Positions 6,999 through 23,081 of a DNA stretch of 24,000 nucleotides are shown here, piece by piece. Numbering within the stretch: position 1 is the first letter of the stretch; each line of letters opens with the position of its first letter. Both the position numbers and the translations under genes were made by a program. The stretch covers positions 12,609-36,608 of the forward strand of contig NZ_CAJYMB010000096.1 of NCBI RefSeq assembly GCF_913775985.1, given 5' to 3'. This DNA is from an uncultured Pluralibacter sp. (GTDB taxonomy: Bacteria; Pseudomonadota; Gammaproteobacteria; Enterobacterales; Enterobacteriaceae). The notes below the pieces were generated by a model. The model did not search any database and had not been told where the DNA came from. It saw nothing but the letters and a program-made list of their open reading frames with translations.

Positions 6999-7126
6999 GG
7001 CTGCATAATAGCCCGCTCCTCAGTAGCAAAATCACTTGGGTTAAAAATGGGCGATCCCTGGTTTAAGGTTGGTCGTGAGGCTGAGAGAAAGGGAGTTGTA
7101 GCATTTTCAAGTAATTACAGCTTATA
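6999..7126 (+). pseudogene. umuC: umuC fragment 2 (codons 35-76 plus 2 nt of codon 77)
   Basis: Translation gives GCIIARSSVAKSLGLKMGDPWFKVGREAERKGVVAFSSNYSL, matching E. coli GCVIARNAEAKALGVKMGDPWFKQKDLFRRCGVVCFSSNYEL. It is flanked on both sides by unrelated sequence. Confidence 0.9.
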
Positions 7127-7131
7127 GTAAG

Positions 7132-7146
7132 TTAAGTGGAATGCAA
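7132..7146 (+). repeat. Element B left terminal inverted repeat
   Basis: TTAAGTGGAATGCAA matches the reverse complement of 18095-18109 (TTATGTGGAATGCAA) at 14/15 positions. Confidence 0.8.
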
Positions 7147-7197
7147 CATTGAGTGAGTAAACTTTGAGCAGCGATATTGCTGTCAGAGGAGAACACG

Positions 7198-8184: not shown

Positions 8185-10301
8185 TGAGTGGAAAAAAAAA
8201 CACAGTCACTTATATACCTTTCAAACGCACAGATTATCAGCTGAGCGATGCGCTGAGTCCTGAGGAAAAAGACGCGATACGTACAGGCTACCGGCGGTCT
8301 GCTGCGCTCGATCGGCCAGATTCCCTGCCATATTTGCTGCTGCCTCTGCAGGACATTGCCTCACGAAGCAGTATCAGTGTCAGACTTGCCAGAATTACCC
8401 TCCTTGCCGTTCTTGCAGAAACGCACCGGTCGGGTCAGCCCTGCTGGCAGTGGACGCAGGAAAGATGGTTAACGCTCTGTGAGCAACACTGTTCCGGCAG
8501 GCCCCTGCTTGCTGCTTTTGCCTTTCATCTCGGTCCGTTTTCTTCTCCGCTCAGCCTGCCAGTGCATGGCGCACCGTCGTTGTACGCCAGTGCTATATAT
8601 GGCCGGAGTATTGTCAGTCATGAAATTAACCGGCTGACAGACGTTCTGATCTCAATGGGATATGCCGGGCAGAATCAGAAGCACAATATGTCCGGTATGC
8701 TGGGTGTACTGATGCTGATGAACAACGACCCGCGTCTTGAAACTTTTACGACAGACCTCCTGTGGCGGGGGCAGAACTGCCACGACCGGGGAATCGCAAG
8801 AGCTACGGGGAAAATATCCTGTGCGCTTGCTGCTATGGGAATTATAGAGAGCCCCCTGAGAATGCGTAACTATCAGGAATGGCATGAAAAGCCAACACAA
8901 GGTATCGCACCTGACTGGGCGCGGTGGTGCCGGATGTGGCGGGAAACGTCGGTACTCCGCCCCCGCTCCAGAGAAACTCAGTACAGTTTTATTCTCCGCT
9001 GTGGCCTGTGGCTTGCCCGGGAAAAGCCGGAAATATGCGAGCCCTCTGACTGGACAATGGAAACCTGCGCCAGCTTTATTGCAATGGTCGGCAGACTGAA
9101 AGTAGACGAGCTGTCACTGGATACAAAGAAAGGGGGCAGACAATCAAAACGCTCAGGAGAACCCCTGATGCCGCATTCCCGCAGCCGGTTTGTTTATGCC
9201 ATTCGCCGTTTTATGCTTGATTATGAAAGCTGGGGATGGGGGCGATTAAAGTTCAGTCCGGCCCGCCATCTGTCCACGCCTGATACACCGCTGTTTCGTC
9301 AGGGCGTGAGCCCCCGCGTTATTGATGATCCGGTCTGGCTCAGACTGGTCTGGGCGAGTCTGAACCTGCGTCAGGAAGATTTGCTGAGCGAAATTCATTA
9401 TCCCCTGTCTATGCTTCAGGCTATGGCGGTTATCTGGACGCATGCCGGGCTGCGACAGAACGAGCTGTTGCGCCTGACAATGAACTGCGTTACCCCACAG
9501 GTGGATGACATTCTGCAGGAAAACAGCAGCCCTGTCCCGGCCGGTACTCTGTGCTATCTCAGCGTACCAGCCGGCAAAACGTCTAAAGCTTTTGTTAAGC
9601 CAGTCTCGTCTGTTGTGAAAAAATATGTCGATATCTGGCTCAGTGAGCGTCCTCAGGAGCAGGCAGCATTTACGGATGAACGCACCGGTGAAAAAGTTCG
9701 TTATCTGTTTCAGAACCGGGGTAAACCGGTGGGAAGAAACATAATAAATCTCACTGTCATTCCGCTTCTCTGCGCCAGAGCGGGTATGTCTGTGGAAGAT
9801 TCACGCGGTCCCATTACCAGCCACCGCGGCCGTGCTTCTGCCGTTACAGCACTGGCCAGTGTTGCCGGGGGGATGTCTTTACATGAGCTGATGCAGTGGT
9901 CCGGCCATTCATCCCCACAGTCAACCCTGCATTATATTCGTATACGTCCGACTCAGCTGGCCGCTTCGTTCGTCAAAGCCGACAGGGTCTCTCATATGAT
10001 AAGCGTGCTGATTGACCACGATCCGGAAGCCGCCAGTCTGACCGGACCCGCGACGTACTATGATCTGGGTGACTCATACTGCACGAACCCTTTCTGGAGC
10101 AGCTGTCAGCACCGGATGGCCTGCATCGGCTGCGATTTTAACCTGCTTAAAGACAGCGCGCGCGGGCTGATAATGGAGAGTAAAGCATCCATCCGGCGTT
10201 ACCTTGAAGAGGTTCCGCTCACTCCCGATGAGAGATCCATACTGGAGCAGGATGCTGAAAAGGTTGAGCGGGTTCTTACAAGACTGGATCCACAATCCTG
10301 A
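8184..10301 (+). CDS. Large tyrosine recombinase (705 aa, Tn554 TnpB-like size class)
   Basis: The start overlaps the upstream stop (TGATG). Motifs are GLRQNELLRL, SHRGRASAVT and GHSSPQSTLHYIR. There is a long N-terminal extension and a Cys-rich C-terminal tail. Confidence 0.8.
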   Translation: MSGKKNTVTYIPFKRTDYQLSDALSPEEKDAIRTGYRRSAALDRPDSLPYLLLPLQDIASRSSISVRLARITLLAVLAETHRSGQPCWQWTQERWLTLCEQHCSGRPLLAAFAFHLGPFSSPLSLPVHGAPSLYASAIYGRSIVSHEINRLTDVLISMGYAGQNQKHNMSGMLGVLMLMNNDPRLETFTTDLLWRGQNCHDRGIARATGKISCALAAMGIIESPLRMRNYQEWHEKPTQGIAPDWARWCRMWRETSVLRPRSRETQYSFILRCGLWLAREKPEICEPSDWTMETCASFIAMVGRLKVDELSLDTKKGGRQSKRSGEPLMPHSRSRFVYAIRRFMLDYESWGWGRLKFSPARHLSTPDTPLFRQGVSPRVIDDPVWLRLVWASLNLRQEDLLSEIHYPLSMLQAMAVIWTHAGLRQNELLRLTMNCVTPQVDDILQENSSPVPAGTLCYLSVPAGKTSKAFVKPVSSVVKKYVDIWLSERPQEQAAFTDERTGEKVRYLFQNRGKPVGRNIINLTVIPLLCARAGMSVEDSRGPITSHRGRASAVTALASVAGGMSLHELMQWSGHSSPQSTLHYIRIRPTQLAASFVKADRVSHMISVLIDHDPEAASLTGPATYYDLGDSYCTNPFWSSCQHRMACIGCDFNLLKDSARGLIMESKASIRRYLEEVPLTPDERSILEQDAEKVERVLTRLDPQS

Positions 10302-10414
10302 CGGATCAGATGCTTACAATGTCCGGCCTGAGGGTGTCAGCGCAGAGTCAGTACAGACGACCGAACGTCGTATCTGATATAAATCTGATTATAGCGGGCG
10401 TGATGCCGTAACTG

Positions 10415-10828
10415 ATGGAGCCGCAGATGAGAAAACAGAAGCGATGTATGGGGTATGTGGCTGTTGTGGTCGATGACTACGATCGTGCAATTGAGTATTA
10501 CACCGATAAGCTGGGCTTTACCCTGATTGAGGACACGCCGCAGCCGGGTAAGCGCTGGGTCGTGGTGACGCCGGACCCTGACAGCGACTGTGCTATTCTT
10601 CTTGCCCGCGCGTCGAACGATCGGCAGGAAGGCTTTATCGGCAATCAGTGCGGCGGACGGGTTTTTCTGTTCCTGCAGACCGACAACTTCTGGCGCGACT
10701 ACAATGCTATGAAGGCAAAAGGCGTCCACTTCTGTCAGGAGCCGCGGGAGGAAGAATACGGAATGGTTGTCGTGTTTGAGGACATCTATGGCAATCGCTG
10801 GGACCTTTACCAGAACAGACAGACCTGA
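10415..10828 (+). CDS. VOC-family (glyoxalase/bleomycin-resistance fold) protein
   Basis: GYVAVVVDDYDRAIEYYTDKLGF...GGRVFLFLQTDNFWRDY...EYGMVVVFEDIYGNRWDL is typical of the VOC fold. The true start may be ATG10427 or ATG10448. Confidence 0.7.
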   Translation: MEPQMRKQKRCMGYVAVVVDDYDRAIEYYTDKLGFTLIEDTPQPGKRWVVVTPDPDSDCAILLARASNDRQEGFIGNQCGGRVFLFLQTDNFWRDYNAMKAKGVHFCQEPREEEYGMVVVFEDIYGNRWDLYQNRQT

Positions 10829-10933
10829 AACTCTGTCACGACAGTGCCCCGGATTTACGAGAAGCATTACAGGCGTAAACCCTGTCGGGTCAGGCCCGCA
10901 GAGAGCGCTTCTGAACAATATACTGAACTGTCT

Positions 10934-10965
10934 GACCTCAGTGCAGCGGTCGCTGCACTGAGGTC
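10934..10965. terminator. Perfect 15-bp palindrome between convergent VOC and crcB genes (candidate bidirectional terminator or protein-binding site)
   Basis: GACCTCAGTGCAGCG, then gt, then CGCTGCACTGAGGTC. There is no clear U-tract on either strand. Confidence 0.45.
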
Positions 10966-10995
10966 TCGCCTGGATTAAAGGCCGTACGGTCCGGG

Positions 10996-11376
10996 TTAAC
11001 CACACAGCGTCATGATATAAAATCCGGCCGCCGTCATGGCCAGCGAACCCAGCACGTGTATCAGCACCGAGGCGGCTGCCCAGGCATAGCTGCCTGACTG
11101 CAGCAGGGCAAAAACCTCAGCTGAAAATGTGGAGAAGGTCGTCATTCCTCCACACAGCCCGGTGGTAATGAGCAGCCGCCAGGCCGGATCGAGGCCGGGA
11201 TGGCGCAGAAAATACGCCAGGGCCGCCCCGATGATAAATCCACCCAGCAGGTTGACCAGCAGCGTCCCCGGCGGCAGGTCCGGAAAAAGCGCATTCAGGC
11301 GCGCGCCCAGCTGCCAGCGGATAACACACCCTAAAGCACCGCCGGTGATGACGGCAAAAAGCTGATTCACGTTCAC
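10996..11376 (-). CDS. crcB: Fluoride ion channel CrcB/FluC
   Basis: Colinear with E. coli CrcB (LFAVITGGALGCVIRW, GTLLVNLLGGFIIG, TTGLCGGMTTFSTFSAE). GTG11376 overlaps the gpmA stop (GTGA). GTG11370 is 5 nt after AAGGAG and is an equally good start. Confidence 0.9.
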   Translation of the reverse strand: MNVNQLFAVITGGALGCVIRWQLGARLNALFPDLPPGTLLVNLLGGFIIGAALAYFLRHPGLDPAWRLLITTGLCGGMTTFSTFSAEVFALLQSGSYAWAAASVLIHVLGSLAMTAAGFYIMTLCG

Positions 11377-12086
11377 TCCTTTTTTTTAATATTCAGAACA
11401 TCACGGGACACGACCTGGGCGGCCGCATCCATCTGATATACGACCGGCACGCCGGTCGGGATGTGCAGCTGTGCCACGCTGTCGTAAGGCATGCCGTCCA
11501 GGAAGGCGGTCAGGGCGCGCAGCGTGTTGCCGTGCGCCACAACCAGAACGGAACTTCCGCAGCGTAACTGCGGTACCACAGCATGCTGCCAGTACGGCAT
11601 GACGCGGCGCAGCGTCATTTCCAGGCTTTCCGTTGCAGGCAGGTCGGCCAGCGCAACGCGGCGGTAGCGCAGATCCCGACGCAGCTGCGCCGGAGCCTCC
11701 GCGTCCGCGGGCGGAATGCCGCTGAAGCTTTTGCGCCAGAGCCGGACAGTCTCTTCCCCCATTATCCGGGCAGCGTCGTCCTTGTTCAGCCCCTGCAGCG
11801 CCCCGTAGTGGCGCTCATTCAGTCGCCAGCTCTTTTCCACGGGCGTCCAGCTGCGGTCAAGACGGTCCAGCACCCGCCAGACCGTGTGAACGCAGCGTGT
11901 CATCACCGAGGTGAAGACACGGTCGGGCATCAGGCCCGCTGCCCGCAACGCGTCACCGGCCCGGTCGGCCTCCTGCCGCCCCCTGACCGTCAGCGGCACG
12001 TCTGTCCATCCGGTAAAACGGTTTTCCCGGTTCCACTGGCTTTCGCCGTGACGCAAAAGGATCAGCGTTGCAGAGGCCACAGGCAT
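11373..12086 (-). CDS. gpmA: 2,3-bisphosphoglycerate-dependent phosphoglycerate mutase family protein
   Basis: Carries the LILLRHGESQWNRENRFTGWTDVPLT histidine-phosphatase signature, plus ERHYGALQG and VVAHGNTLRAL. I placed the start at ATG12086 because the longer ORF-track form overlaps eno. Confidence 0.85.
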   Translation of the reverse strand: MPVASATLILLRHGESQWNRENRFTGWTDVPLTVRGRQEADRAGDALRAAGLMPDRVFTSVMTRCVHTVWRVLDRLDRSWTPVEKSWRLNERHYGALQGLNKDDAARIMGEETVRLWRKSFSGIPPADAEAPAQLRRDLRYRRVALADLPATESLEMTLRRVMPYWQHAVVPQLRCGSSVLVVAHGNTLRALTAFLDGMPYDSVAQLHIPTGVPVVYQMDAAAQVVSRDVLNIKKKE

Positions 12087-12123
12087 TCCTTCTGTGCCGG
12101 ACGGGGACCGTCCGGCGGATGTG

Positions 12124-13413
12124 CTACGTGCGGCGCACAAACGCATGAAGCCCCGCGTAGTGCGCATCGTCACCCAGCGCCTGCTCAATGCGCATCAGCT
12201 GGTTGTACTTTTCCACGCGTTCGCCGCGGCACGGCGCGCCGGTTTTCAGGTGTCCCGCGCGCAGGGCCACCGTCAGGTCGGCAAGGAACGTGTCCGTGGT
12301 TTCCCCGCTGCGGTGGGACATGAACGCGCCCCAGCCGTGCCGCTGGCAGAGCGCCACGGCGTCCAGCGTTTCGCTGAGCGAGCCTATCTGATTGAGTTTA
12401 ATCAGTGCGGCGCTGGCGAGGTTTTCGTCAATGCCGCGCTGGATATACTTCACGTTGGTGACAAACAGGTCGTCACCAACCAGTTCGGCCCTGCCCGCAA
12501 GCTGCCGGTGCAAATGCTTCCAGCCCGCCCAGTCGTCCTCGGCCAGGCCGTCTTCCAGCAGGATGACGGGAAACTGGTCCATCAGCTCGCCGTAGTATGC
12601 CGTCATTTCCGCCGCGCTCAGCGCGCTGCCCTCGGTGCGCAGATGATATTTGCCGTCTGCGAAAAACTCACTTGAGGCAGGGTCCATGCAGATGCTGATG
12701 TCTTCTCCGGGCCGGTATCCGGCTTTCTCAATGGCCTGTACGATAAACGCCAGCGGGTCGCGGTTTGACGACACGGCGGGCGCAAAACCGCCTTCGTCGC
12801 CCACTGCCGCCGACAGGTTGTTGTCCAGCAGGATCTGGCGCAGCGCCTGGTAGACCTCGCTGCCCTGACGTACGGCCTCGCGCAGCGTGGGTGCGCCGTG
12901 CGGGGCTATCATGAACTCCTGAAAGTCCGCGCCCTGACCGCGGGCGTGCACGCCGCCGTTGATAATGTTCATGCACGGCACGGGCAGCAGGTTCGCCTGC
13001 AGGCCACCCAGGTAGCGCCACAGCGGCTCGTGGGAGGCCTGTGCCGCCAGCCGGGCCACCGCCAGCGACACGCCCAGAATGGCATTGGCACCCAGGCGAC
13101 TCTTGTTCTCCGTGCCGTCCAGCGCCAGCATGATGTTGTCCAGCTGACGCTGTTCGCGCACGTCGCTGCCGCGCACGGCCTGGCAGATTTCCGTATTAAC
13201 CGCCCTGACGGCATCCAGCACGCCTTTACCGCCAAAACGGTGTGCGTCACCGTCGCGGCGCTCTGCGGCCTCGCGCGAGCCGGTACTGGCCCCGGAAGGC
13301 ACCGAGGCGCGCGCCATCATCCCGTCCGTAGTCCGGGCTTCAACTTCAACGGTGGGGTTGCCGCGCGAGTCAAGAATTTCACGGGCGGTTACGTTATCCA
13401 GTGTAAAGCGCAT
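12124..13413 (-). CDS. eno: Enolase (extra, island-borne copy)
   Basis: AREILDSRGNPTVEVE, SVPSGASTGSREA, DVAASEF-like, LLLKLNQIGSL-like and SHRSGETTDTFLADL motifs are colinear with bacterial enolase. Confidence 0.92.
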   Translation of the reverse strand: MRFTLDNVTAREILDSRGNPTVEVEARTTDGMMARASVPSGASTGSREAAERRDGDAHRFGGKGVLDAVRAVNTEICQAVRGSDVREQRQLDNIMLALDGTENKSRLGANAILGVSLAVARLAAQASHEPLWRYLGGLQANLLPVPCMNIINGGVHARGQGADFQEFMIAPHGAPTLREAVRQGSEVYQALRQILLDNNLSAAVGDEGGFAPAVSSNRDPLAFIVQAIEKAGYRPGEDISICMDPASSEFFADGKYHLRTEGSALSAAEMTAYYGELMDQFPVILLEDGLAEDDWAGWKHLHRQLAGRAELVGDDLFVTNVKYIQRGIDENLASAALIKLNQIGSLSETLDAVALCQRHGWGAFMSHRSGETTDTFLADLTVALRAGHLKTGAPCRGERVEKYNQLMRIEQALGDDAHYAGLHAFVRRT

Positions 13414-13428
13414 GGTGTTTCTCCCGGT

Positions 13429-13854
13429 TCAGTCAGTCAGGTGAGTGATAAGCACATCCACCGTAAGGTGGTTGATGTAGTCCGCCGAGCGGGAGGTGAG
13501 CATTCCCATAAAGCGGTTTCGGTGCCCGGCAAGCACGAGGTCCACGCCCAGCTCCGCGATGCACTTCTCCACGTCCTCAACGCGGCGCATGGTCACCAGC
13601 TCCCGCGTGTCTACCGTCTCAGGCACGGAGGCCGCCAGCTCACTCATAAACGCTTTGCCTTTCAGCACCTCCTCCGACACGACGTCGTCCATCAGGCTGT
13701 CAGACACGTAGTTCATCTCCCGGTAGTCGTCGCTGATGTGCGCCAGGGTGATTTTCATGCCGAGCGGCTGCGCCAGCGCGACCGCCCGTTTCAGCAGAAG
13801 AGTGCCGTCGTTTTTATCGTTCACAAGTATCAGTGCGTGGGTGTAGCAGGTCAT
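13429..13854 (-). CDS. Universal stress protein (UspA family)
   Basis: 141 aa. ILVNDKNDGTLLLKRAVALA...VDLVLAGHRN...SRSADYINHLTVDVLI is typical of the USP fold. The ATG overlaps the ppaC stop. Confidence 0.8.
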   Translation of the reverse strand: MTCYTHALILVNDKNDGTLLLKRAVALAQPLGMKITLAHISDDYREMNYVSDSLMDDVVSEEVLKGKAFMSELAASVPETVDTRELVTMRRVEDVEKCIAELGVDLVLAGHRNRFMGMLTSRSADYINHLTVDVLITHLTD

Positions 13855-14759
13855 AATGAACCTCCGTTCTGGTTAAGGCGGGACTCAAGCCACGGCAGAA
13901 GCTGCTTTTTGCGGCTGAGCATGCCCGGTACGGAGCAGGAGGCGACGTTAACGCTCTCCCGCCCGGCGAAGTAAAGCGTTGAGAACCCGGTACGAATGTC
14001 GGTCAGCATCAGCACCGCCAGGCCAGCTCCCGACTGGTCTGCCAGATACGCCAGTGCTGCGAGCAGGTCGTTCATCACGGGGGCAACCTGTGACGGTGAG
14101 CTGACCTCAATCTGGGCTATGCGCACGTCGGTGCCGGCAATGACGAAGGCCTTGAGGTCCCTGTCCAGCAGCTGCTGTGCGCTGAGGCCGCTGACGTCTG
14201 TTTTTGCGGTGAGGAGGTCACGGGCGAAGGCTCTGCGGTTTACGCCAGACAGTGCGCCCAGTTCGGTCGCCGAACGGATATCGTCTTCGGTGGTGGTCGG
14301 CGAGCGAAGATTCACGGTATCACTCAGGAGTGCGCCCAGCAGAAGCACGGCGAGCGTCGGGGGCAGCATGCGGCGCGCTTCTGCGTCCATCAGCAGCCAG
14401 AGCAGCGTGGCGCTGCTGCCAACCGGGCGAATATGTACCTCCGGCGGCAGTTGCGTTATCAGCCCGCCCAGCCGGTGGTGGTCAGTGATGCCCACGACGT
14501 TGCTCCGGAGCAGGTCGTCAGGCCCCTGTGCCGGTTCGGTGAAATCGACCAGCCAGACCCGTTCATCCTTTAGCGGAAAAGCGAGCAGCGGCGGCAGCGT
14601 GAGGCCGGCGGCGTCAAAGATAAAGCGGGTTTCCCGGTTAGCCTCGCCGAGACGCCATGCGCGGGCATCCATTCCGCGCCCGGTCAGCCAGTGTGCGGTG
14701 ACGACGGTCGTGCAGATGGCGTCGCTGTCAGGATTAATGTGGCCAAAAACGTGTATCAC
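13851..14759 (-). CDS. ppaC: Family II (DHH/DHHA2, Mn-dependent) inorganic pyrophosphatase
   Basis: HVFGHINPDSDAI, ITDHHR, PVGSSATL, LLSDTVNLRSPTTT and SRKKQLLPWL are colinear with PpaC. The start is GTG14759, preceded by GGGGAGAGA. Confidence 0.88.
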   Translation of the reverse strand: MIHVFGHINPDSDAICTTVVTAHWLTGRGMDARAWRLGEANRETRFIFDAAGLTLPPLLAFPLKDERVWLVDFTEPAQGPDDLLRSNVVGITDHHRLGGLITQLPPEVHIRPVGSSATLLWLLMDAEARRMLPPTLAVLLLGALLSDTVNLRSPTTTEDDIRSATELGALSGVNRRAFARDLLTAKTDVSGLSAQQLLDRDLKAFVIAGTDVRIAQIEVSSPSQVAPVMNDLLAALAYLADQSGAGLAVLMLTDIRTGFSTLYFAGRESVNVASCSVPGMLSRKKQLLPWLESRLNQNGGSL

Positions 14760-14841
14760 AGGTCTCTCCCCATAGAGGGAAGTACGCAGGCCGGGAGGAA
14801 AGTAAGGACGGCCTGACGCACCTCCTGAAAATCAAGAGTCA

Positions 14842-14901
14842 CATCAGGCGTCATCAGCTCCTGAACGGAGCGGTTGGGAAGGGTGGAACGCCATCACCCT
14901 G
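14842..14901 (-). promoter_or_regulatory. Fluoride riboswitch (crcB RNA motif) in the ppaC operon leader
   Basis: The minus strand reads AGGGUGAUGGCGUUCCACCCUUCCCAACCGCUCCGUUCAGGAGCUGAUGACGCCUGAUG. P1 is GGGUG/CACCC, P3 is GCUCC/GGAGC, and the pseudoknot is GGCGU/ACGCC. The conserved GAUGG, AACCGC and CUGAUGA elements sit as in the Thermotoga aptamer GGGCGAUGAGGCCCGCCCAAACUGCCCUGAAAAGGGCUGAUGGCCUC. Confidence 0.9.
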
Positions 14902-14908
14902 TACTGTG

Positions 14909-14937
14909 AGTATAGAGCCGGTTGCAAAACCTGTCAG
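14909..14937 (-). promoter_or_regulatory. Sigma70 promoter of the fluoride operon
   Basis: On the minus strand: CTGACA, 17-nt spacer, TATACT. This predicts a transcription start near 14902, immediately 5' of the riboswitch. Confidence 0.7.
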
Positions 14938-14956
14938 TATTATTCCGGCGGCGCTC

Positions 14957-15556
14957 TCAGCCCGCCAGCGCAGTGCGTGCCTCGCGGAGCACCTGGCGGA
15001 TGTTTTCCGGCACTGCCGGGCTTGTGCAAAGCGACAGCGGGCTGGGGTGAGGCATAGTCAGCACCGTGACGCCGGGGCGAAGGCAGCTGACCGTCCCGCG
15101 GGCCTGCGCCGCTACGGCACCGGCCAGCACCACCACGCGCAGCGCGGGCAGATACGCCAGCACGCCCTCAAGCCAGGCGCAGCCGCTGCGGATGTCCGCC
15201 GCTGAGGGCCGTTTCTGCGGCCCGTCACTGACCCAGGGCACCGTATTCCACAGCACGCTGTCCCGGCGCGCAATACCGGCCTCCGCCAGAAACCGCCCCA
15301 GATTCTGCTGGGCCGGCCCCGGGTTATCTCGCGAAACGAACCGGGGTGACGGGCTGCTGCGCGCCGGCGACTGCAGCAGGACAAGCAGTCCGGCCCCGGT
15401 CCCGCCGTCGGCCGGATCAAACCACGGCAGTTCCACGCCGGCCTGACGCTGCCCGCTGACCCAGCGATTCAGCGCGGCTACGTGCGGCGCGGTAATCGCC
15501 GCGAGGCGCTCCTCGCGCAGAAAGGGGTCCAGCAGCGACGTGCAGGTTTCACTCAC
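14957..15556 (-). CDS. Uracil-DNA-glycosylase-superfamily-like protein
   Basis: About 199 aa from GTG15556, which overlaps the upstream TGA (GTGA). It has an alternating beta-strand/helix pattern (LLVLLQSP, VLWNTVPW, VVVLAGAVA) and a C-terminal MPHPSPLS motif like the HPSP motif of family 4/5 UDGs. The ORF-track N-terminal extension overlaps the transporter gene and is unlikely to be real. Confidence 0.45.
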   Translation of the reverse strand: MSETCTSLLDPFLREERLAAITAPHVAALNRWVSGQRQAGVELPWFDPADGGTGAGLLVLLQSPARSSPSPRFVSRDNPGPAQQNLGRFLAEAGIARRDSVLWNTVPWVSDGPQKRPSAADIRSGCAWLEGVLAYLPALRVVVLAGAVAAQARGTVSCLRPGVTVLTMPHPSPLSLCTSPAVPENIRQVLREARTALAG

Positions 15557-16713
15557 GACTTCCGGTCCAGGCCTGCCAGGCAGGGGGAAACAAAGAGTTT
15601 CCCGCTCCATGCCCCGCGCACCGTCTTCACAGCGACAAGCAGCCACATGGCGGCCAGCATGACGACAAGAAGCGCGCCGAAGCCTTTAAAGAACGCCAGG
15701 TCAACGAGGGTGGACAGCTTCAGCGTGGCGACGGTGTACACGCCCAGCGGGAAGGTAAAGCCCCACCATCCCAGGTTGAACGGAATGCCTTCACGAAAGT
15801 ATCGCACGGTTATCAGCGTGGCCAGCAGCATCCACCACAGGCCGCAGCCCCAGAAGAGAATGCCGGCAACGAACCCCACGCCCTGCGCGATGTGAGCGAT
15901 TTCCGGCATGCCCGCCGCGGCAAACACCCCGGGCGCATCGCCGCCGATGACCAGCATACCGAGCGAACCGGTGCCAATCGGCCCCAGGGCCAGCCAGCTT
16001 GAGGCTGCCATGCTTTCGTGCGGCAGCTTGTGCAGGGCCATACGCAGCAGCAGGATGGCAAGGATGCTCAGCGCCACCGGTACGGAGTAAGCCCACAGCA
16101 CGTAGCTGGTAATAATGATGCCGAGCTGCGCGTGGGTGTCGGCAATGTGCGGCGCCAGCAGGCCGCCGCTGACCGCTGCGACCTCGGCAGCCACAACCGG
16201 CAGTAACCAGACGGCCGTCATCTGGTCAATGCTGTGCTGCTGCCGGGTAAACATCATGTAAGGAATACACACGCCGCACAGCAGCGACATCGCCACGTCC
16301 AGCCACCACAGGGCGTGCGCCACCGGAATGACGTCTGCGCCCCACCGGGGAAGACCGAACGCCAGCAGGCCGTTGATGATGGTCGCCATGCCCATCGGGA
16401 TGGTGCCGAAGAACATGGACACGGTTGAATGGCCGAAGATGCGCTTTGCCTCACCGAAGTACATGACCCAGCGGGCCAGATACATCACGGCAAAAACGCT
16501 GAACAGCAGGATGTTAAACATCCACAGCCCTTCCGCGACGAGGCGCAATCCCGGAACCGGCCAGGGGAACTGCGCCAGAGACAGCGACAGGATACCGGTT
16601 CCCATGGTGGCGGCGAACCAGTTTGGCGTGAACTGACGTATGGCCTCTTTCGGGCTGCTCAGCGCGCTCAGCGGGCGTGCTCCGTTATGCAGGGTAAATA
16701 TTTTATCGTTCAT
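15553..16713 (-). CDS. TDT-family (TehA/Mae1/SLAC1-like) anion transporter
   Basis: 386 aa with about 10 TM helices. The N-terminal FTPNWFAATMGTGILS motif is characteristic of C4-dicarboxylate/tellurite-resistance (PF03595-type) transporters. Confidence 0.7.
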   Translation of the reverse strand: MNDKIFTLHNGARPLSALSSPKEAIRQFTPNWFAATMGTGILSLSLAQFPWPVPGLRLVAEGLWMFNILLFSVFAVMYLARWVMYFGEAKRIFGHSTVSMFFGTIPMGMATIINGLLAFGLPRWGADVIPVAHALWWLDVAMSLLCGVCIPYMMFTRQQHSIDQMTAVWLLPVVAAEVAAVSGGLLAPHIADTHAQLGIIITSYVLWAYSVPVALSILAILLLRMALHKLPHESMAASSWLALGPIGTGSLGMLVIGGDAPGVFAAAGMPEIAHIAQGVGFVAGILFWGCGLWWMLLATLITVRYFREGIPFNLGWWGFTFPLGVYTVATLKLSTLVDLAFFKGFGALLVVMLAAMWLLVAVKTVRGAWSGKLFVSPCLAGLDRKS

Positions 16714-16811
16714 GCCGGGATCTCCTGTGTAAACAGAAACAGTATAGGCATGCAGACGTAAATCTTTAAAACAGGTTATTCAGCTAAAATAAATCTGTAA
16801 AAGTGGTTTAT

Positions 16812-16858
16812 CCTCCCTCACCCTGCGAAAGACTGTTACTGCACCGGAGTGAGGGAGG
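16812..16858 (-). terminator. Stem-loop after the beta-propeller gene
   Basis: CCTCCCTCAC (16812-16821) pairs with GTGAGGGAGG (16849-16858), a 10-bp GC-rich stem with a long 27-nt loop. It lies 8 nt downstream of the stop. The U-tract is weak. Confidence 0.4.
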
Positions 16859-16865
16859 GACTGAA

Positions 16866-17867
16866 TCAGGCCTTCGGCGGGCTTTTAATCGTGGCCGTGA
16901 CGCGGTTCTGTTTCAGGTCAACCACCGAAATACTGAGGTCTTTATTCAGCACCCACGCGCGGGCACTGTCTTTACTGAAAACGATGGCCTGACGGGGCGC
17001 ATCCAGTCCGGTAACAGTGGCGACCACCTTACCGGCGGCGGTATCAATAACGGAGAGGCTGTTGTCACCCAGGTTGCCGCTGTAAACATAGCGGTTATCC
17101 GGTGTCAGGGCGGCACCGTAAGGGTCCTGCCCCACGGGAATGGTTGCCGTAATGGCGCGCTTCTGCGTGTCAACCACTGCGATGGTGTTGCTCCCGCTGT
17201 TAGCCGCGTAAAGCGTGCGGCCGTCGGCGCTGACAGAAATGGCGCGCAGCTTGCTGAAGCCGGTTATCTCGCCGCGAATCTCACCCGTTACGGCGTCAAC
17301 GAGGGTGATTTTATCGCCCTTAAAGTTGGTGACGTAGACGGTTTTGCCGTCCGGGCTGATTTTGATGCCCTGACGGGGCTGAGCAAAACCCGTCACAACC
17401 GAAACGGGCCGGTTGTGGGTCAGGTCATACACCGAGAGTGTGCTGGCGGCTTCGTTATTCACATACAGACGCTGACCGTCACGGCTGATGGCTGTACCGA
17501 ATGCCCCGGCCCCCAGCGGCAGCGTGGTCTCCACGTCAAGCGTCCCGGTGCTGATTTTTCTGACCACGCCGAGGCTGCTGTCTGAAAGATATACAGCCTT
17601 CCCGTCGGGGGAGAAAAGCGCATTGCGGGGCGTGACGTATCCCTTCAGCACCTTTCTGACTTTGCCGTTAACCAGGTCGTAAACCACCACGTCAGGGAGC
17701 TCACTGTAGGAGGCCACCGCCGTTTTTTCATCGGGACTGACAGCAAGAGAATTGTTGTGGATATCGCCGTCAAACGTCCAGCGCGCCTCTGCGGCACCGG
17801 CGAGGGTGCTGATGAGAAGAAGCGCCACCGCGGTCAGTCCCGGGATCCTGTATTTTTTTATCATCAT
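16866..17867 (-). CDS. Secreted YVTN/YncE-like seven-bladed beta-propeller protein
   Basis: Signal peptide MMIKKYRIPGLTAVALLLISTLAGAAEA, followed by repeated SPDGKxxYVxN / xxxxLSVID blades typical of YncE/lactonase-type propellers. Confidence 0.75.
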   Translation of the reverse strand: MMIKKYRIPGLTAVALLLISTLAGAAEARWTFDGDIHNNSLAVSPDEKTAVASYSELPDVVVYDLVNGKVRKVLKGYVTPRNALFSPDGKAVYLSDSSLGVVRKISTGTLDVETTLPLGAGAFGTAISRDGQRLYVNNEAASTLSVYDLTHNRPVSVVTGFAQPRQGIKISPDGKTVYVTNFKGDKITLVDAVTGEIRGEITGFSKLRAISVSADGRTLYAANSGSNTIAVVDTQKRAITATIPVGQDPYGAALTPDNRYVYSGNLGDNSLSVIDTAAGKVVATVTGLDAPRQAIVFSKDSARAWVLNKDLSISVVDLKQNRVTATIKSPPKA

Positions 17868-18094
17868 TTTTCCTGCATAGGGGGTGGTAAGGGATAAGAC
17901 TCATTGCCCGCTTAAGGGCTTCAGAAGAAGCGTGGCAGATAACCCCCTCTCAGGGAAATCGATTTTCCGGCTATGTCTTACCAGTTCACTTCTTTATGCT
18001 CTGAGCGGAGGTAAACTGCAGCAATTTAAGGCTGAATAAGTGGGGCTCTGGATTTCAGTCCATGAGGAATAGTTGCTCATTTTTTTTGTTTAAA

Positions 18095-18109
18095 TTGCAT
18101 TCCACATAA
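18095..18109 (-). repeat. Element B right terminal inverted repeat
   Basis: TTGCATTCCACATAA is the partner of 7132-7146. Confidence 0.8.
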
Positions 18110-18110
18110 A

Positions 18111-19152
18111 TGCTGATATGTCAGACAGAGTGATGACTATTTTGCAGCTTCTAACCCCGCGCGTGGAAATATACAGCATTGATGAGGCATTTTGTGATCT
18201 TCAAGGGGTGAGTAATCTGTTGTCGCTTGAAGAGTTTGGCCATCATATACGTACTCAGATTAAGCGAAGAACACATCTGACTGTGGGAGTGGGAATAGGC
18301 CCTACAAAAACGCTCGCCAAACTGGCTCAGTATGCAAGTAAGCGCTGGCCCGCAACGCGAGGTGTGGTAGATCTCAGTGACAGAGAGCGTCAGCGTAAGT
18401 TAATGGCTTTAGTGCCAGTTGAGGAGATCTGGGGTATCGGACGTAGGCTGGGTAAAAAACTACAATTTATGGGAATTAACAATGCACTTCAGCTGGCAGA
18501 GCTGTCACCTTCATTCATTCGTAAACAGTTCTCAGTAGTTGTTGAGCGCACGGTCAGAGAGCTGAACGGCACTCCTTGCCTCGGTTTAGAAGAATTTACT
18601 GCCCCAAAAGAACAAATCATATGCTCCCGATCTTTTGGAGAAAAACCGTCGGACGAAGTCAGCCTGCATCAGGCCATTTGCGCTCATGCTGAACGTGCAG
18701 CAGAAAAACTCCGTGCAGAGCATCAATTTTGTAAACGGGTAGCAGTTTTCATTAGTACCAGCCCTTTCTCAGAAAATGAGCTGTTTTATAAGAACCAGGC
18801 GGTAACAGAGCTTGCTGTACCCGCTCAGGATTCACGGGATATCATCAACGCGGCTATAAAGGCATTTGATACGATATTTGTCCCAGGGCACCGTTATCAT
18901 CGTGCTGGCGTGATGCTCACTGATTTCCGAAGCGCTGCTGTATCTCAATTGACCCTTTTTGATGACTTTCAGCCCCATCGAAACAGCGAGGAGCTGATGA
19001 CATTAATCGATAGCATTAATCACTCAGGTAAAGGTTCGGTCTGGTTTGCAGGGCAGGGCATTAAAAGTGATGCCACAGGCTGGAAGATGCGAAGAGAAAG
19101 ACTTTCGCCTGCCTTTACAACCAGGCTGGATGACATAATCAAGGTGAAGTAG
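18111..19152 (+). pseudogene. umuC: umuC fragment 3 (last base of codon 77 to stop)
   Basis: Translation gives ADMSDRVMTILQLLTPRVEIYSIDEAFCDLQGV...THLTVGVGIGPTKTLAKLA...IWGIGRR...LSPAFTTRLDDIIKVK, colinear with E. coli UmuC residues 78-422. Confidence 0.92.
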
Positions 19153-19269
19153 TTCTATTAATGTGCTTAACCGTCGACCCCGAATTATTGACTTTCATTG
19201 AACAATGCGTCAGGGTTTTACGGCCTGTTACATTGTGCAAAAGTTATTAAATTATGGAGGAAAGTGAAT

Positions 19270-19815
19270 ATGAGGAGTGTCGGACTAGCCTTAATACTAC
19301 CTGTTTTACTGACTGCCTGTAGTATGAGTGAGATAGCAGAAACAAATAAAAAAATTAGTGATGGTGCATCAGGGTTAATGGGCTCTTTAAGAGGGGATGG
19401 CTCAGATAATTCTTCTAAGGTCATGACTCCTCGTCAGTCAGAAAAAAAAGAATCCACTTCAAAAAGCTTCAAGATCCCTGTTGATGTTGATACGGCAGCG
19501 GCCAGAATAAAGCGAAAGTATAAGTTTTTATCCAACGATGAGTTAAGGTCGATCAGAGAAAGGAATAACGACGGCGAGTGGGTAGCTGGCGCAATAACTG
19601 ACAGCCATCAGGAATGGGATTCAATGCCCGGCAGCTATTATAAAATGGGCTCCGACTGGGGTGATTATGATGATCACCTTACTATTGAGCTCGAAAAAAA
19701 TGGTTCAGGGAGCCGTCTTTTTATAACATATAGCTCATCATCTCAAAAAAGACTGGCGAGTTCCGGATTGCAGGATTTAATAAAAAATATTAAAAGCTCT
19801 GCTGAAGGAAAATAA
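19270..19815 (+). CDS. Hypothetical lipoprotein
   Basis: ATG19270 follows GGAGGA. MRSVGLALILPVLLTAC carries the lipobox LLTAC. The gene is AT-rich and I recognise no family. Confidence 0.6.
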   Translation: MRSVGLALILPVLLTACSMSEIAETNKKISDGASGLMGSLRGDGSDNSSKVMTPRQSEKKESTSKSFKIPVDVDTAAARIKRKYKFLSNDELRSIRERNNDGEWVAGAITDSHQEWDSMPGSYYKMGSDWGDYDDHLTIELEKNGSGSRLFITYSSSSQKRLASSGLQDLIKNIKSSAEGK

Positions 19816-19822
19816 TATTTAT

Positions 19823-20569
19823 ATGAGTGTGGATAAGGTGCGTCCACACTCAATATTAAATGGGGGGACTATGTTTAATCTTTTATCATCTCTCAGAAAA
19901 AAGAAAGGATATCGTACTTTAGGATATAGTGACACACTGGACTATGTTGCTAACTTTGAGCATGCTTTAAAATTTACAAAAAAATTAGGATTTAACGAAG
20001 GCACGATTAAAGATATAAATGAAAGGCCGCTTAATTATGAAAATATGATGGAGTATGTGTGCTTTGCAACGGGCTTGCGAGATTTCAAATCTTCCGCAAG
20101 ACAATGTATTAAATGGTGTCATTTTTTAAAACCTTATTTTGAAGATGCTTTAGGTTGCAGAATATGGACAACTGTTGGCCAAATATGGAAAGGTGATGAA
20201 AGTATTTATGACCCATCATATGATGAGTTTGAAAGATGGTCCAGGAAGGGATTTCAGCATGAGGACTTTCTGGACAGACCAGCTTTAAATCTCCATGCGT
20301 GGTACACAACAGATACAGGGCATTTAATCGATATTTCTTATCTGAGTACTATTGCTGGTTTTTATTCTGATTGCCATGAATTTGCAGGGGAAGTGTTGAT
20401 AGGTAAGCCTGATGAAATTTTCCGTGGTCATCAGTACGTACCCATGATTGTGGGAGACAGAATAATTGAAAAAATTCAAAAAAATTCATCTATACCTTTC
20501 CTCGCTAATGATGTTGAGGAGCTTAAGTCAATTGCCATAGTGATTTATCCAGATCCTGATTATAAATAA
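19823..20569 (+). CDS. Hypothetical protein (AT-rich orphan)
   Basis: 248-aa ORF 7 nt after the lipoprotein stop, with an alternative start at ATG19871. I recognise no motifs. The coding call rests on ORF length and codon periodicity only. Confidence 0.5.
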   Translation: MSVDKVRPHSILNGGTMFNLLSSLRKKKGYRTLGYSDTLDYVANFEHALKFTKKLGFNEGTIKDINERPLNYENMMEYVCFATGLRDFKSSARQCIKWCHFLKPYFEDALGCRIWTTVGQIWKGDESIYDPSYDEFERWSRKGFQHEDFLDRPALNLHAWYTTDTGHLIDISYLSTIAGFYSDCHEFAGEVLIGKPDEIFRGHQYVPMIVGDRIIEKIQKNSSIPFLANDVEELKSIAIVIYPDPDYK

Positions 20570-20579
20570 CGCAAGATAG

Positions 20580-20608
20580 TTGACGGTTATTTGAGCCATT
20601 GCTAATAT
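20580..20608 (+). promoter_or_regulatory. Near-consensus sigma70 promoter facing a structured non-coding region
   Basis: TTGACG (20580-20585), 17-nt spacer, TAATAT (20603-20608). No ORF starts within several hundred nt downstream. Confidence 0.6.
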
Positions 20609-20655
20609 CCACTTTGCTTAGAAGTCGCTACGGCGACCATCCAAAACCCCAGTAA

Positions 20656-20793
20656 CCTGAGAGGGGTGCCTTCGGGCGGTTACCAGCTAATGCTTCAGCG
20701 GTCTGAGAGAAGCGCCTTCGGGTGACTGCCAGCTAAAGTCCCGAAAACCTGAGAGGGACGCCTTTGGGCGGGAAACCCGTTTAACCTTTGAAA
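20656..20793 (+). repeat. Three tandem 46-bp imperfect repeats, each with a CTGAGAG box and a UUYG-capped hairpin
   Basis: Units start at 20656, 20702 and 20748: CCTGAGAGGGGTGCCTTCGGGCGG..., TCTGAGAGAAGCGCCTTCGGGTGA..., CCTGAGAGGGACGCCTTTGGGCGG... The first two also share CCAGCTAA. Confidence 0.7.
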
Positions 20794-21027
20794 ACGGGAA
20801 CCATAACCTGGTCAAGGTTACCGGTTGAGAATGACCGGCTATCACATCAATGATTCACGTCTTTATGATGATGAATTGTCTACAAAGGAGCTGAATCAGG
20901 CTCTGATCTTTCACTACGTTATGATTCTTTTCAGGGATTCGCCCTGAGTTTCGTACGACTTTTGCACCGACGGATAAGGTCATTTGGTACATTTGGCCGC
21001 TTACGGCGTTGCATTAGGAGCACGAAG

Positions 21028-21080
21028 CTGCGCGGCGTCACTTGTGAAGTGGCGAAGACACTACCAAGTGACGCGCGCAG
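21028..21080. repeat. Long inverted repeat (16-bp stem, 20-nt loop)
   Basis: CTGCGCGGCGTCACTTG (21028-21044) pairs with CAAGTGACGCGCGCAG (21065-21080), with one bulged nucleotide. Confidence 0.7.
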
Positions 21081-21096
21081 CGCATAACGTCTCAAC

Positions 21097-21115
21097 CCAC
21101 GTACGACGTGGTTTT
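21097..21115 (+). terminator. Candidate intrinsic terminator
   Basis: CCACGT, loop acg, ACGTGG, followed by TTTT. Confidence 0.45.
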
Positions 21116-21498
21116 CAACGTTTTACTACCATCTGACCAACATGTAGCCCGTGTCAGTACGGTTTTAAAATCACTTTCACATCAACGTAAGCACGACGGG
21201 AGGCCGTCTGAACGTTCAACTATCAGTAAGGAGGAAATCGACTCGGTATCGATGGCGACACTACGAGCAGTAGTGTTGGAGGCAGCTTGACGTAAGTCAG
21301 CTCTGCATAAGCAGCAAACAGATCAGAGATCTGGGGTGCCTCGCAAGAACTCAACAATTCGCCGCCCCGATGCACAGATACCAGTCGAGACGCAGGAAGC
21401 GCAAAAGCAACCGTGTCGTCGGGGAATGAATTGCTGGTCTACAGATCCGTCTGCTTCTTTACAAGCAGAGGGACGTGTATGCCTTTGGAGAGAGTGAA

Positions 21499-22398
21499 AT
21501 GTCCAGATTCAGTAAACAGCTGTGCAAACAACTCGTCACGCTTGCCCGTCAGGGGCGGGGAAGTTATAAAACGGTGGCTGACCGTTCAAGAATTGCAGAA
21601 CGTTTTTCTGAACGACTGTCTGAACTGAATATTCAGATCAGGGACGTAAAACATATTAAAACTTCCCACATTGAAAAGTATATTGAGAGCAGGAAGGCAG
21701 ACAATTTGTCTCTGAGGACGTTACAGAATGAGATGTCGGCTATCCGTTCTGTTTTATTGTCAGCAGGAAGAAATAAACTGGCCGATCCCAGGTACACTAA
21801 CCTGAGTAATCAGGCGCTCGGAATTTCTGGAGCTAACCGGGATGGAACTAAACTTCCTATTACAGACGAGAAACTTAATGCCGTGGTCAGTTTTGCTCAA
21901 AGAAAAGATGAAGGCGTTGCTCTTGCTGTGCAACTTTCCCGATATCTTGGATTGAGAACAGAAGAAACCGTTCAGTCTGCAAAGTCTTTAAAGACATGGA
22001 AGCAGGCACTGATTAATAATCATGAGCGTGTCCGTGTTGTTTTCGGGACTAAAGGCGGACGTCCAAGGGAAACGACAGTTTTTAATCGCGAAAAAGTTTT
22101 ATCAATTCTTGATAAGGCAATTCATTATGTCAGTGAACATAACGGAAAACTGATTGATAAACCCTCTTTGCATACCGCTATTGATCGCTACCGTAATATT
22201 GTAAGAGAGGCAGGAATGAATGGTAAAAATGCGCCGCACAGTTTACGTTATGCTTACTCTCGCGATGCTGTGAATCACCATATTAAAAATGGAATGAGTC
22301 GTGATGAAGCTGAGGCATTAGTGTCGATGGATTTAGGGCATGGTGATGGTCGGGGACGATATATTAAACAGGTCTATTTTCGTGAGGAAACAGAATAG
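21499..22398 (+). CDS. Tyrosine-recombinase-fold 'integrase domain' protein (Integrase_1-like)
   Basis: About 299 aa from ATG21499 (GGAGAGAG upstream). Motifs are LGLRTEE (Arg), HSLRYAYS (H-x-x-R) and LGHGDGRGRYIKQVY (His...Tyr). Confidence 0.65.
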   Translation: MSRFSKQLCKQLVTLARQGRGSYKTVADRSRIAERFSERLSELNIQIRDVKHIKTSHIEKYIESRKADNLSLRTLQNEMSAIRSVLLSAGRNKLADPRYTNLSNQALGISGANRDGTKLPITDEKLNAVVSFAQRKDEGVALAVQLSRYLGLRTEETVQSAKSLKTWKQALINNHERVRVVFGTKGGRPRETTVFNREKVLSILDKAIHYVSEHNGKLIDKPSLHTAIDRYRNIVREAGMNGKNAPHSLRYAYSRDAVNHHIKNGMSRDEAEALVSMDLGHGDGRGRYIKQVYFREETE

Positions 22399-22463: not shown

Positions 22464-23081
22464 CTAATGTGAATCCTTACATGCTCTGATAACTGTCATG
22501 CGAGATACGCCAGCGAGTCTTGCTGTTTCGTTTATTGACTTTCCATTTTCCTTACGAAGCGTTCTTATTAATTCATGTTTTTCCTTGTCTGGCAGCCTTC
22601 CCCTGTATTTTCCTTTTTCCCTGGCGCTTGTAATTCCCTCCATCTGTCTTCTGCGTCGATCTTCATAATCCTTACGGGCTATTGCTGCTAACATGTCCAG
22701 CATCATATTATTCACTGCACGAAGAATACTACCGGTAAAGTCATCTGTTGATGATCTAGACAGGGCAAGATGACTTGTTGGCAGGTCAAGGCTTATTATT
22801 GAAAGTGATTTTTCATTAATCATCTTTTTCAAAGATGCCCAGCCATTATCATCCAGGCGTGAAAGCCGATCCACTTGTTCTATAAGTATCGCATCCCCTG
22901 GCTCTGTATCCTGAAGCAGTCTCATCAGCTCCGGTCGATGCAATGCTGCACCTGAAGCATTTTCAACATACCAGCCAGCTATGCGATGGTTGTGTAATTG
23001 AGCAAAGTCCTTGAGCCTCGTTTTCGCACGCAACGCATCCTGTTCCTGAGTTGAAGCACGAAGATATCCAAATATGAACAA
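22464..23081 (-). CDS. Serine recombinase (resolvase/invertase family)
   Basis: The N-terminus FGYLRASTQEQ carries the catalytic Ser, followed by LIEQVDRLSRL. The C-terminus has a helix-turn-helix (INETARLAGVSRMTVIRA). The start is TTG, preceded by GGAGGG. Confidence 0.85.
   Translation of the reverse strand: MFIFGYLRASTQEQDALRAKTRLKDFAQLHNHRIAGWYVENASGAALHRPELMRLLQDTEPGDAILIEQVDRLSRLDDNGWASLKKMINEKSLSIISLDLPTSHLALSRSSTDDFTGSILRAVNNMMLDMLAAIARKDYEDRRRRQMEGITSAREKGKYRGRLPDKEKHELIRTLRKENGKSINETARLAGVSRMTVIRACKDSH

Follow-up and report, generated by a model that had tools for sequence, protein, structure and literature searches.

A STAXI–EFASI RNA locus preceding an MpsA-family gene in Pluralibacter resembles the mobilization region of SGI1 in its layout

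The stretch of 24,000 nucleotides (nt) analysed here, termed the window, stems from an uncultured Pluralibacter sp. (NCBI RefSeq assembly GCF_913775985.1, contig NZ_CAJYMB010000096.1, positions 12,609 to 36,608 of the forward strand) and contains, directly behind a promoter, an array of 46-nt repeats that a preliminary description had taken for an unrecognised structured RNA. The array is a member of the known RNA family STAXI (RF01728) and not a new RNA. The Rfam scan that this description had proposed matched positions 20664–20822 (+) with 100.7 bits, compared to a gathering score of 40.5, and covered the full model (1–153) at E = 8.5e-21, a value far beyond chance; it furthermore returned a second motif, EFASI (RF02957), with 88.4 bits. 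Between these two RNAs lies a long, near-invariant hairpin, which is uncatalogued and new here, and behind EFASI follows a gene with the domains PF12834 and PF12835, whose predicted product resembles MpsA, the atypical relaxase of Salmonella genomic island 1 (SGI1). On balance, we lean towards reading this arrangement as a mobilization module built like that of SGI1, in which STAXI would form the 5′ domain of a non-coding RNA (ncRNA) accompanied by a candidate origin of transfer (oriT). STAXI, described in 2010, and EFASI are catalogued motifs of orphan status. The motif itself is hence a rediscovery, and the value of the analysis lies in the context that links STAXI, EFASI and the uncatalogued hairpin to MpsA-type mobilization.

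Anatomy of the STAXI array

The family was introduced as a pseudoknot repeated two, usually three, times in the vicinity of SSB, topoisomerase, antirestriction and XerDC-integrase genes (Weinberg et al. 2010, Genome Biol 11:R31; PMC2864571). The window provides a neighbour of this kind with the PF12834/PF12835 gene at 21499–22398, and its array begins with a 5′ leader hairpin, continues with three canonical 46-nt units and ends in a degenerate terminal unit (Table 1). The hairpins and the 46-nt repeats listed in the preliminary description were found at the places given for them, with direct repeats starting at 20637, 20683 and 20729 (spacing 46 and 46 nt) and showing 65–77% identity in a repeat search. 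Tandem Repeats Finder did not find the 46-nt array, the units being too divergent.

Each canonical unit consists of a linker (CCAGCYAAUG), the first half of helix a (5 nt), one spacer nucleotide, the first half of helix b (6 nt), the sequence UGAGA, the second half a′, an inner hairpin of the form GCC-UUCG-GGY and finally the second half b′, where the b half ends in the C of CUGAGA. The spacing and the UUCG-type loops noted earlier were retained, but each unit is a pseudoknot and not the simple hairpin that had been described. The inner loops read C(UUCG)G in units 1 and 2 and C(UUUG)G in unit 3, for which non-canonical pairs are flagged in the Rfam alignment.

Likewise, CCCGUUU/AAACGGG and UAACCU/AGGUUA, previously listed as separate hairpins, together build a fourth, degenerate STAXI unit, each supplying one helix. 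This terminal unit corresponds approximately to the model positions 118–153, where the Rfam model pairs AACCUU with AAGGUU, carries the conserved motif ACCUUUGAAAAC and ends nearly every STAXI array. As the window holds one canonical unit more than the Rfam consensus, the model match starts inside unit 1; the model aligned the inner hairpin of this unit with its first hairpin, the true counterpart of which is the leader hairpin. At the DNA level, the window STAXI shares at most ~77% identity with any copy in the plasmid collection.

Table 1 Features of the STAXI–EFASI locus in the window (positions refer to the window).
Feature	Position	Strand	Details or basis
Promoter TTGACG-17-TAATAT, sigma-70-type, TG-extended −10	20580–20608	+	Promoter scan
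5′ leader hairpin GUCGC-UACG-GCGAC	20626–20639	+	GUYGY-loop-RCRAC hairpin after the promoter in other loci
STAXI pseudoknot unit 1	20637–20683	+	a 20646–20650/a′ 20663–20667, ACCCC/GGGGU; b 20652–20657/b′ 20678–20683, GUAACC/GGUUAC; inner GCC-UUCG-GGC 20668–20677
STAXI pseudoknot unit 2	20683–20729	+	GCUUC/GAAGC; GCGGUC/GACUGC; GCC-UUCG-GGU
STAXI pseudoknot unit 3	20729–20775	+	GUCCC/GGGAC; b/b′ only 2 bp; GCC-UUUG-GGC
Terminal variant unit	20776–20819	+	CCCGUUU 20776–20782/AAACGGG 20792–20798; AACCUU 20783–20788/AAGGUU 20814–20819
Variable spacer	20823–21026	+	Local hairpins CCGGU/ACCGG 20821–20838 and CAGGG-AUUCG-CCCUG 20932–20946
Long hairpin	21027–21081	+	Perfect 10-nt arms GCGUCACUUG 21035–21044 and CAAGUGACGC 21065–21074
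Weak terminator-like hairpin CCACGU-ACG-ACGUGG-UUUU	21097–21115	+	Sequence inspection
Conserved box TACCAUCUGACCAACAUGUAG, consensus yACCnnCUGAcc.ACACGUA	21127–21147	+	~55–60 nt 3′ of the long hairpin (21-locus alignment)
EFASI RNA motif (RF02957)	21238–21387	+	Rfam, 88.4 bits, gathering score 51.2
Tyrosine-recombinase-fold protein, 299 aa, PF12834 and PF12835	21499–22398	+	Pfam search

Covariation of the pseudoknot helices and the structured strand

The pairing was assessed on 39 distinct units from ~25 loci, assembled from a pattern scan with one genome per species together with plasmid and E. coli records. The pattern scan yielded many chance matches in unrelated phyla, and only Enterobacterales loci proved to be STAXI. 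The units had been pre-selected for an intact 3-bp inner hairpin, and 11 of 50 candidates were dropped as register-shifted or non-canonical. Within this set, 96.7% of the 546 cells of the pseudoknot pair, compared to 33–53% when the partners were slid by 1–3 columns. Double-sided changes were observed for 11 of the 14 pairs (110 such cells), and none of 500 shuffles reached any of the observed measures. Both pseudoknot helices covary within the window as well as across the 39 units. The base pairing is hence conserved through compensatory changes, a point that the preliminary description had singled out for checking, and its view of a selected, promoter-driven structured ncRNA locus is borne out by these changes together with the promoter found in 30 of 36 loci (see below).

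The closing pair of the inner stem is G-U in 30 of the 39 units and would be A-C on the opposite strand, an excess indicating that the structured strand is the + strand, in the sense of the downstream gene. Nested-only minimum free energy folding of the array resulted in z = −1.9 for the + strand and −0.65 for the − strand relative to shuffles. As this folding energy is only mildly better than that of the shuffles, the structural evidence rests on covariation. The G-U pairs, the C(UUCG)G loops and the position-locked promoter together favour repeats that act as RNA and not as single-stranded DNA (ssDNA). Both forms had already been weighed for the family, with RNA preferred owing to the UUCG loops (PMC2864571).

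Promoter and predicted transcript

Transcription is predicted to start at ~20615–20617. The −10 element of the promoter ends 17 nt 5′ of the leader hairpin, which begins within ~10 nt of the predicted start. From 20609 to the gene start at 21499 (~890 bp) no open reading frame (ORF) >60 aa is present, confirming that the promoter points into a stretch devoid of credible coding sequence. An equivalent promoter, scoring at least 8 of 12 in the 75 nt upstream that were scanned, was detected in 30 of 36 distinct STAXI loci, compared to 4 of 35 control windows. In nearly all promoter-bearing loci the −10 element ends 11–15 nt 5′ of the start of the Rfam STAXI model, and STAXI always follows the promoter directly and shares its strand with the next gene. 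RNAs of STAXI as well as EFASI have been detected by reverse transcription quantitative PCR in E. coli vesicles (PMC12370729).

The terminator-like hairpin that the preliminary description had placed at the 3′ end of the locus is present in the sequence, but it was not flagged in a terminator scan of the region. In the spacer alignment of 21 loci it is kept in close relatives only, and it was ruled out as a conserved 3′ end. Poor conservation together with the negative terminator scan makes read-through from the STAXI side to EFASI likely. We infer that the whole 0.9-kb stretch would be one primary RNA originating from the STAXI promoter. The earlier suggestion of a long leader of the integrase-like gene finds partial support; the ~0.9-kb stretch leads into the PF12835 gene.

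A near-invariant hairpin between STAXI and EFASI

The most conserved element of the region is the long hairpin, for which arms of the form GCGUCACUU(G/U) and (C/A)AAGUGACGC were observed in all 21 STAXI–EFASI loci aligned. Arm variants are compensatory: at the tenth position U/A takes the place of G/C, and one plasmid has GUGUCAC/GUGACAC. The apical stem-loops vary and can always fold, and the outer helix extensions span 2–8 bp with sequences differing among loci; outer and apical helices both covary. A 16-bp hairpin had been noted here at 21028–21080, the extent of which differs slightly from the one determined in the present analysis. The hairpin matched no Rfam family at E ≤ 1, and a literature search with its arm sequences returned coincidental primers only. 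Its pattern occurs in 23 contigs of IMG/VR, and in 14 of these a homologue of the window gene (PF12835) follows 200–350 nt downstream.

The hairpin is a candidate for an oriT inverted repeat and/or for an RNA processing or protein-binding site, and as a candidate oriT repeat it could function as ssDNA. The known nick-site consensuses of RP4, pMV158 and pC194/phiX did not fit the conserved box located 3′ of the hairpin in an informal comparison.

The spacer 5′ of the hairpin contains a sharp mosaic breakpoint at ~20928. From there rightward to ~22548, the window shares 94–98% identity with plasmids of Citrobacter and Klebsiella as well as with an E. coli chromosome, whereas to the left STAXI is present on both sides, yet with nearly no DNA identity. 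This pattern suggests recombination between the STAXI part and the part comprising hairpin, EFASI and gene.

EFASI and the downstream PF12835 gene

EFASI lies 415 nt 3′ of STAXI and 111 nt 5′ of the integrase-like gene, outside the segment covered by the preliminary description. The window arrangement of STAXI, a few hundred bp, EFASI and an "integrase" is the published one: in the family description, EFASI lies several hundred bp behind STAXI and ahead of integrase genes (quoted in PMC12370729). The window EFASI differs from the family in an extra covarying helix 3′ of the Rfam model (21365–21372/21417–21424), in which the conserved, "unpaired" EFASI 3′ stretch CCCCGAUG pairs with CGUCGGGG ~45 nt downstream. 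Covarying versions of this helix in other loci are UCCCGAUG/CGUCGGGA, CCCUGC/GCAGGG and CUCUGGCGCA/UGCGCCAGAG. EFASI is probably larger than modelled, or adopts an alternative fold.

The protein encoded downstream of EFASI matched PF12835 with 195.7 bits, compared to 43.5 bits for MpsA (321 aa). A direct BLASTP comparison of the two yielded E = 4e-7 over 209 residues, 22% of which are identical. Among the catalytic motifs, the arginine of GLRxEE aligns, as do GTKGGRxR, HxxR and LGHG...Y, with the predicted nucleophile Y288 of the window protein corresponding to Y319 of MpsA. Judged by these similarities, the window protein is a distant homologue of the SGI1 relaxase. The PF12835 domain serves as a signature of MpsA-type atypical relaxases (PMC10484663). 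For this comparison the SGI1 region including MpsA was taken from one Salmonella record (OX345320.1) in the plasmid collection, retrieved by a published primer; the same primer had no match in the E. coli genomes. Homologues of the window protein with 48–97% identity are encoded ~110–140 nt 3′ of EFASI in every larger locus. In the window, the next gene is a convergent resolvase (22464–23081), and no small MpsB-like gene follows.

Distribution and behaviour of the module

The order STAXI, hairpin, EFASI is fixed in the 21 loci, with the PF12835 gene coming next in larger elements. Two otherwise unrelated E. coli plasmids, a 3.1-kb rolling-circle plasmid of the Rep_1 type and a 5.3-kb plasmid, have only a ~930-bp block in common (NZ_CP059920.1 2197–3128 and NZ_CP100506.1 2195–3083), which extends at 90% identity from the promoter to 64 nt past EFASI and comes without the PF12835 gene. 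This module makes up ~30% of the 3.1-kb plasmid. ColE1-type plasmids of Pantoea, Rahnella and others similarly contain STAXI, hairpin and EFASI without the gene. The module on gene-less plasmids is intact, with STAXI scoring 139 bits, which indicates that it is under selection without the downstream ORF.

Second STAXI copies were observed in several loci (L153, L023, L036, L051, L107 and L032). These copies have their own strong promoter and head operons of DUF3085, ArdC, DUF1281 or SSB, with a further conserved element (CCCCGACGGGAA...UUCCCG) and a hairpin sequestering the Shine-Dalgarno sequence located before the first ORF. In the Salmonella locus L153, the second copy (13988–14140) is followed by DUF3085 and ArdC, and in the loci L035, L051 and L036 STAXI is followed by ssb. 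The gap from STAXI to the next ORF is 16–150 nt across int-like, ssb-type and ardC operons. Since STAXI occurs in operons lacking hairpin and EFASI, it would represent a 5′ domain of general use in transcripts for establishment and transfer, with the hairpin and EFASI being specific to the PF12835 gene.

In addition, a C4 antisense RNA (RF01695) was found ~0.4 kb 3′ of the PF12835 gene in two loci (L031, 2177–2263; L097, 5408–5494), fitting an older remark that STAXI sometimes lies near c4 RNAs.

Comparison with SGI1 and MOB_M systems

SGI1 is the one element whose conjugative mobilization is known to require a small RNA encoded by the element itself. Its order is a ttgacg-16-taatat promoter (P5), a primary RNA of 650–700 nt, a 125-bp oriT, sgm-sRNA and mpsA, where oriT contains three inverted repeats and is crossed by the primary RNA (Kiss 2019, PMC6414798; Nagy 2021, PMC9299015). 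The sgm-sRNA constitutes the 3′ part of the primary RNA just 5′ of mpsA and is trans-acting and essential for mobilization, whereas the 5′ part is dispensable and helps maturation; protein binding by sgm-sRNA is also considered by the authors (PMC6414798, PMC9299015).

The window follows the same order, with its promoter, STAXI, the inverted repeat, EFASI and the MpsA-family gene. The promoter type is near-identical, the spacer being 17 nt in the window and 16 nt in SGI1. In both systems a largely non-coding stretch of 0.7–0.9 kb, predicted to be transcribed in the case of the window, leads towards a gene of the PF12835 family, and both contain central inverted repeats as well as a structured RNA domain just 5′ of this gene. 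As a separate observation, the sgm core of SGI1 (OX345320.1 3774–4051, −) contains two UUCG-capped hairpins, CCGCC-UUCG-GCGG and GCGCGCUUCGCGC, as well as the 10-mer CCAGCCAAUG, the very sequence of the STAXI linker consensus; this could be due to chance, at roughly 1e-3.

MpsA belongs together with TcpM, MobK and their relatives to the MOB_M relaxases, which were recently reported as the commonest chromosomal relaxases, either linked to integrative and conjugative elements (ICEs) of the MPF_G type or stand-alone, and often annotated as integrases (2026 preprint, bioRxiv 10.64898/2026.01.13.699239). The TAI islands of O157:H7 reportedly possess no more than an oriT-like region, which resembles the regions ahead of MOB_M genes (bioRxiv 10.64898/2026.01.13.699239). 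A TAI-like, urease-bearing locus in our data contains STAXI (134 bits) and the hairpin without the PF12835 gene. None of the MOB_M seed accessions of the preprint was found among the accessions shown for the cluster of the window protein.

Discussion

Reading the locus as a mobilization module of the SGI1 type would assign a role to each of its elements. As a structured 5′ domain, STAXI would either stabilise the primary transcript or guide its maturation. The central hairpin would be a candidate oriT repeat or RNA processing site, and EFASI would be the counterpart of the transfer-essential 3′ small RNA, sgm-sRNA. The ncRNA stretch and the PF12835 gene would together constitute a conjugative mobilization module.

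Several points weigh against this assignment. The function of the SGI1 region was established by experiment, whereas transcript and transfer are predictions for this locus. The Rfam models of STAXI and EFASI did not match the SGI1 P5–mpsA region at E ≤ 10, so that the parallel is one of architecture and not of demonstrable RNA homology. STAXI furthermore heads ssb and ardC operons without hairpin or EFASI, showing that STAXI itself is not tied to oriT. Unlike MpsA, which is accompanied by a separate MpsB in SGI1, the window protein has its own fused core-binding-like amino-terminal domain (PF12834), and in Salmonella it is encoded within ~3.5 kb of an apparent island edge, so that it could be a true integrase. 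To our knowledge, none of the MOB_M systems has a known nic site. Since STAXI alone also heads the ssb and ardC operons, it most likely serves transcripts for transfer and establishment as a generic 5′ leader or as a protein-binding RNA domain.

A broader version of the SGI1-type reading is put forward tentatively. STAXI, hairpin and EFASI may be the RNA-plus-oriT half of MOB_M (MpsA-family) modules in Enterobacterales, where the hairpin would be the oriT core that the PF12835 protein recognises, the transcript from STAXI to EFASI would be matured to an RNA required for transfer, like sgm-sRNA in SGI1, and relaxase-less small plasmids as well as TAI-type islands with the module would be hitchers mobilized in trans. 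If true, two orphan Rfam motifs would be assigned a function, and RNA-dependent conjugative mobilization would extend beyond SGI1. Should the parallel hold, ICEs, small plasmids and genomic islands of enterobacteria, among them the TAI-type islands of O157:H7, would widely be mobilized in this way, and many annotated "integrases" would be relaxases.

A rather unlikely, if serious, alternative is that STAXI is only a generic cis-acting 5′ leader, for example an mRNA stabiliser, a processive antiterminator or a block to Rho or RNase E loading, and has no role in relaxosome or oriT. The invariable location directly after the promoter, in sense with the next gene, is consistent with such a leader, and so is the occurrence ahead of int-like, ssb-type and ardC operons alike. 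However, a mere leader is difficult to reconcile with the small plasmids that keep promoter, STAXI, hairpin and EFASI without a downstream gene, and a 5′ stabiliser would need less than three to four conserved pseudoknots whose junction bases are invariant.

It appears improbable that STAXI is a trans-acting repeat RNA that sequesters proteins, resembling either the CsrB/RsmY sponges or the cut units of ToxI. Tandem 46-nt pseudoknot units with the invariant unpaired bases CCAAU and UGAGA would be well suited for this purpose, the module persists without the downstream gene, and protein binding has been weighed for sgm-sRNA by the SGI1 authors. Like STAXI, the type III antitoxin RNAs (ToxI) consist of tandem 36–46-nt pseudoknot repeats behind a promoter. 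STAXI differs from them in its divergent units, in its specialised first and last elements, which give the array a defined non-repeat start and end, and in the lack of a toxin endoribonuclease gene: neither a gene of the ToxN/AbiQ/CptN type nor any ORF >60 aa comes after the repeats (20609–21498), and the neighbouring proteins had no match in PADLOC. On these grounds, a type III toxin–antitoxin antitoxin was ruled out.

We consider it very improbable that the functional form of the repeats is ssDNA exposed during conjugation or replication, whether as priming site, single-strand origin or part of oriT, as raised by Weinberg et al. 2010 and in the preliminary description. The association with SSB, ArdC, topoisomerase and a relaxase-like gene would agree with such a form, as would the presence of STAXI on the 3.1-kb rolling-circle (Rep_1) plasmid and the central hairpin, a perfect Watson-Crick repeat that can fold on either strand. 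On the Rep_1 plasmid, however, STAXI is antisense to rep, and in plasmids of the pC194 type it is the rep-sense strand that becomes displaced, which would hold the STAXI complement. The frequent G-U pairs, which become A-C mismatches on the other strand, and the position-locked promoter likewise disagree with ssDNA, and it is RNA, not DNA, that C(UUCG)G loops stabilise (PMC2864571). Of the earlier proposal of DNA used in conjugation, the link to conjugation finds partial support, but ssDNA is not favoured for the repeats. Iterons, an iteron-type replication origin (oriV) or a chance repeat can practically be dismissed, as the three direct repeats with their regular 46-bp spacing vary in sequence at 65–77% identity yet keep their pairing, the opposite of iterons, no rep gene is present among the neighbouring ORFs, no match to a known oriV or iteron family was found, and the Rfam E-value is the one given above.

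Sequences 5′ of the STAXI promoter

Two ORFs on the + strand, 19198–19815 (205 aa) and 19823–20569 (248 aa), lie directly 5′ of the STAXI promoter and had no match in Pfam, NCBIfam and PADLOC. The first ~480 nt of the former belong to a match of 74% identity with loci of Citrobacter and E. coli. In Salmonella, an ORF of 203 aa is located at the equivalent position.

Further upstream, the window region 7104–18120 (11 kb) is 99.9% identical to several Pantoea plasmids, and the window most likely represents a plasmid of the Pantoea type. This block comprises eno, a TDT/SLAC1-type transporter, a YncE-like beta-propeller and two tyrosine recombinases, and contains a fluoride riboswitch (RF01734, 50.2 bits, 14838–14907, −). 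By its content, the block looks like a mobile fluoride-response island. An adjoining UmuC/ImpB-type polymerase ORF (18118–19152, +) lacks approximately the first 75 positions of the IMS domain and begins at the right boundary of the block at 18120; it appears to have been cut short by the insertion of the island.

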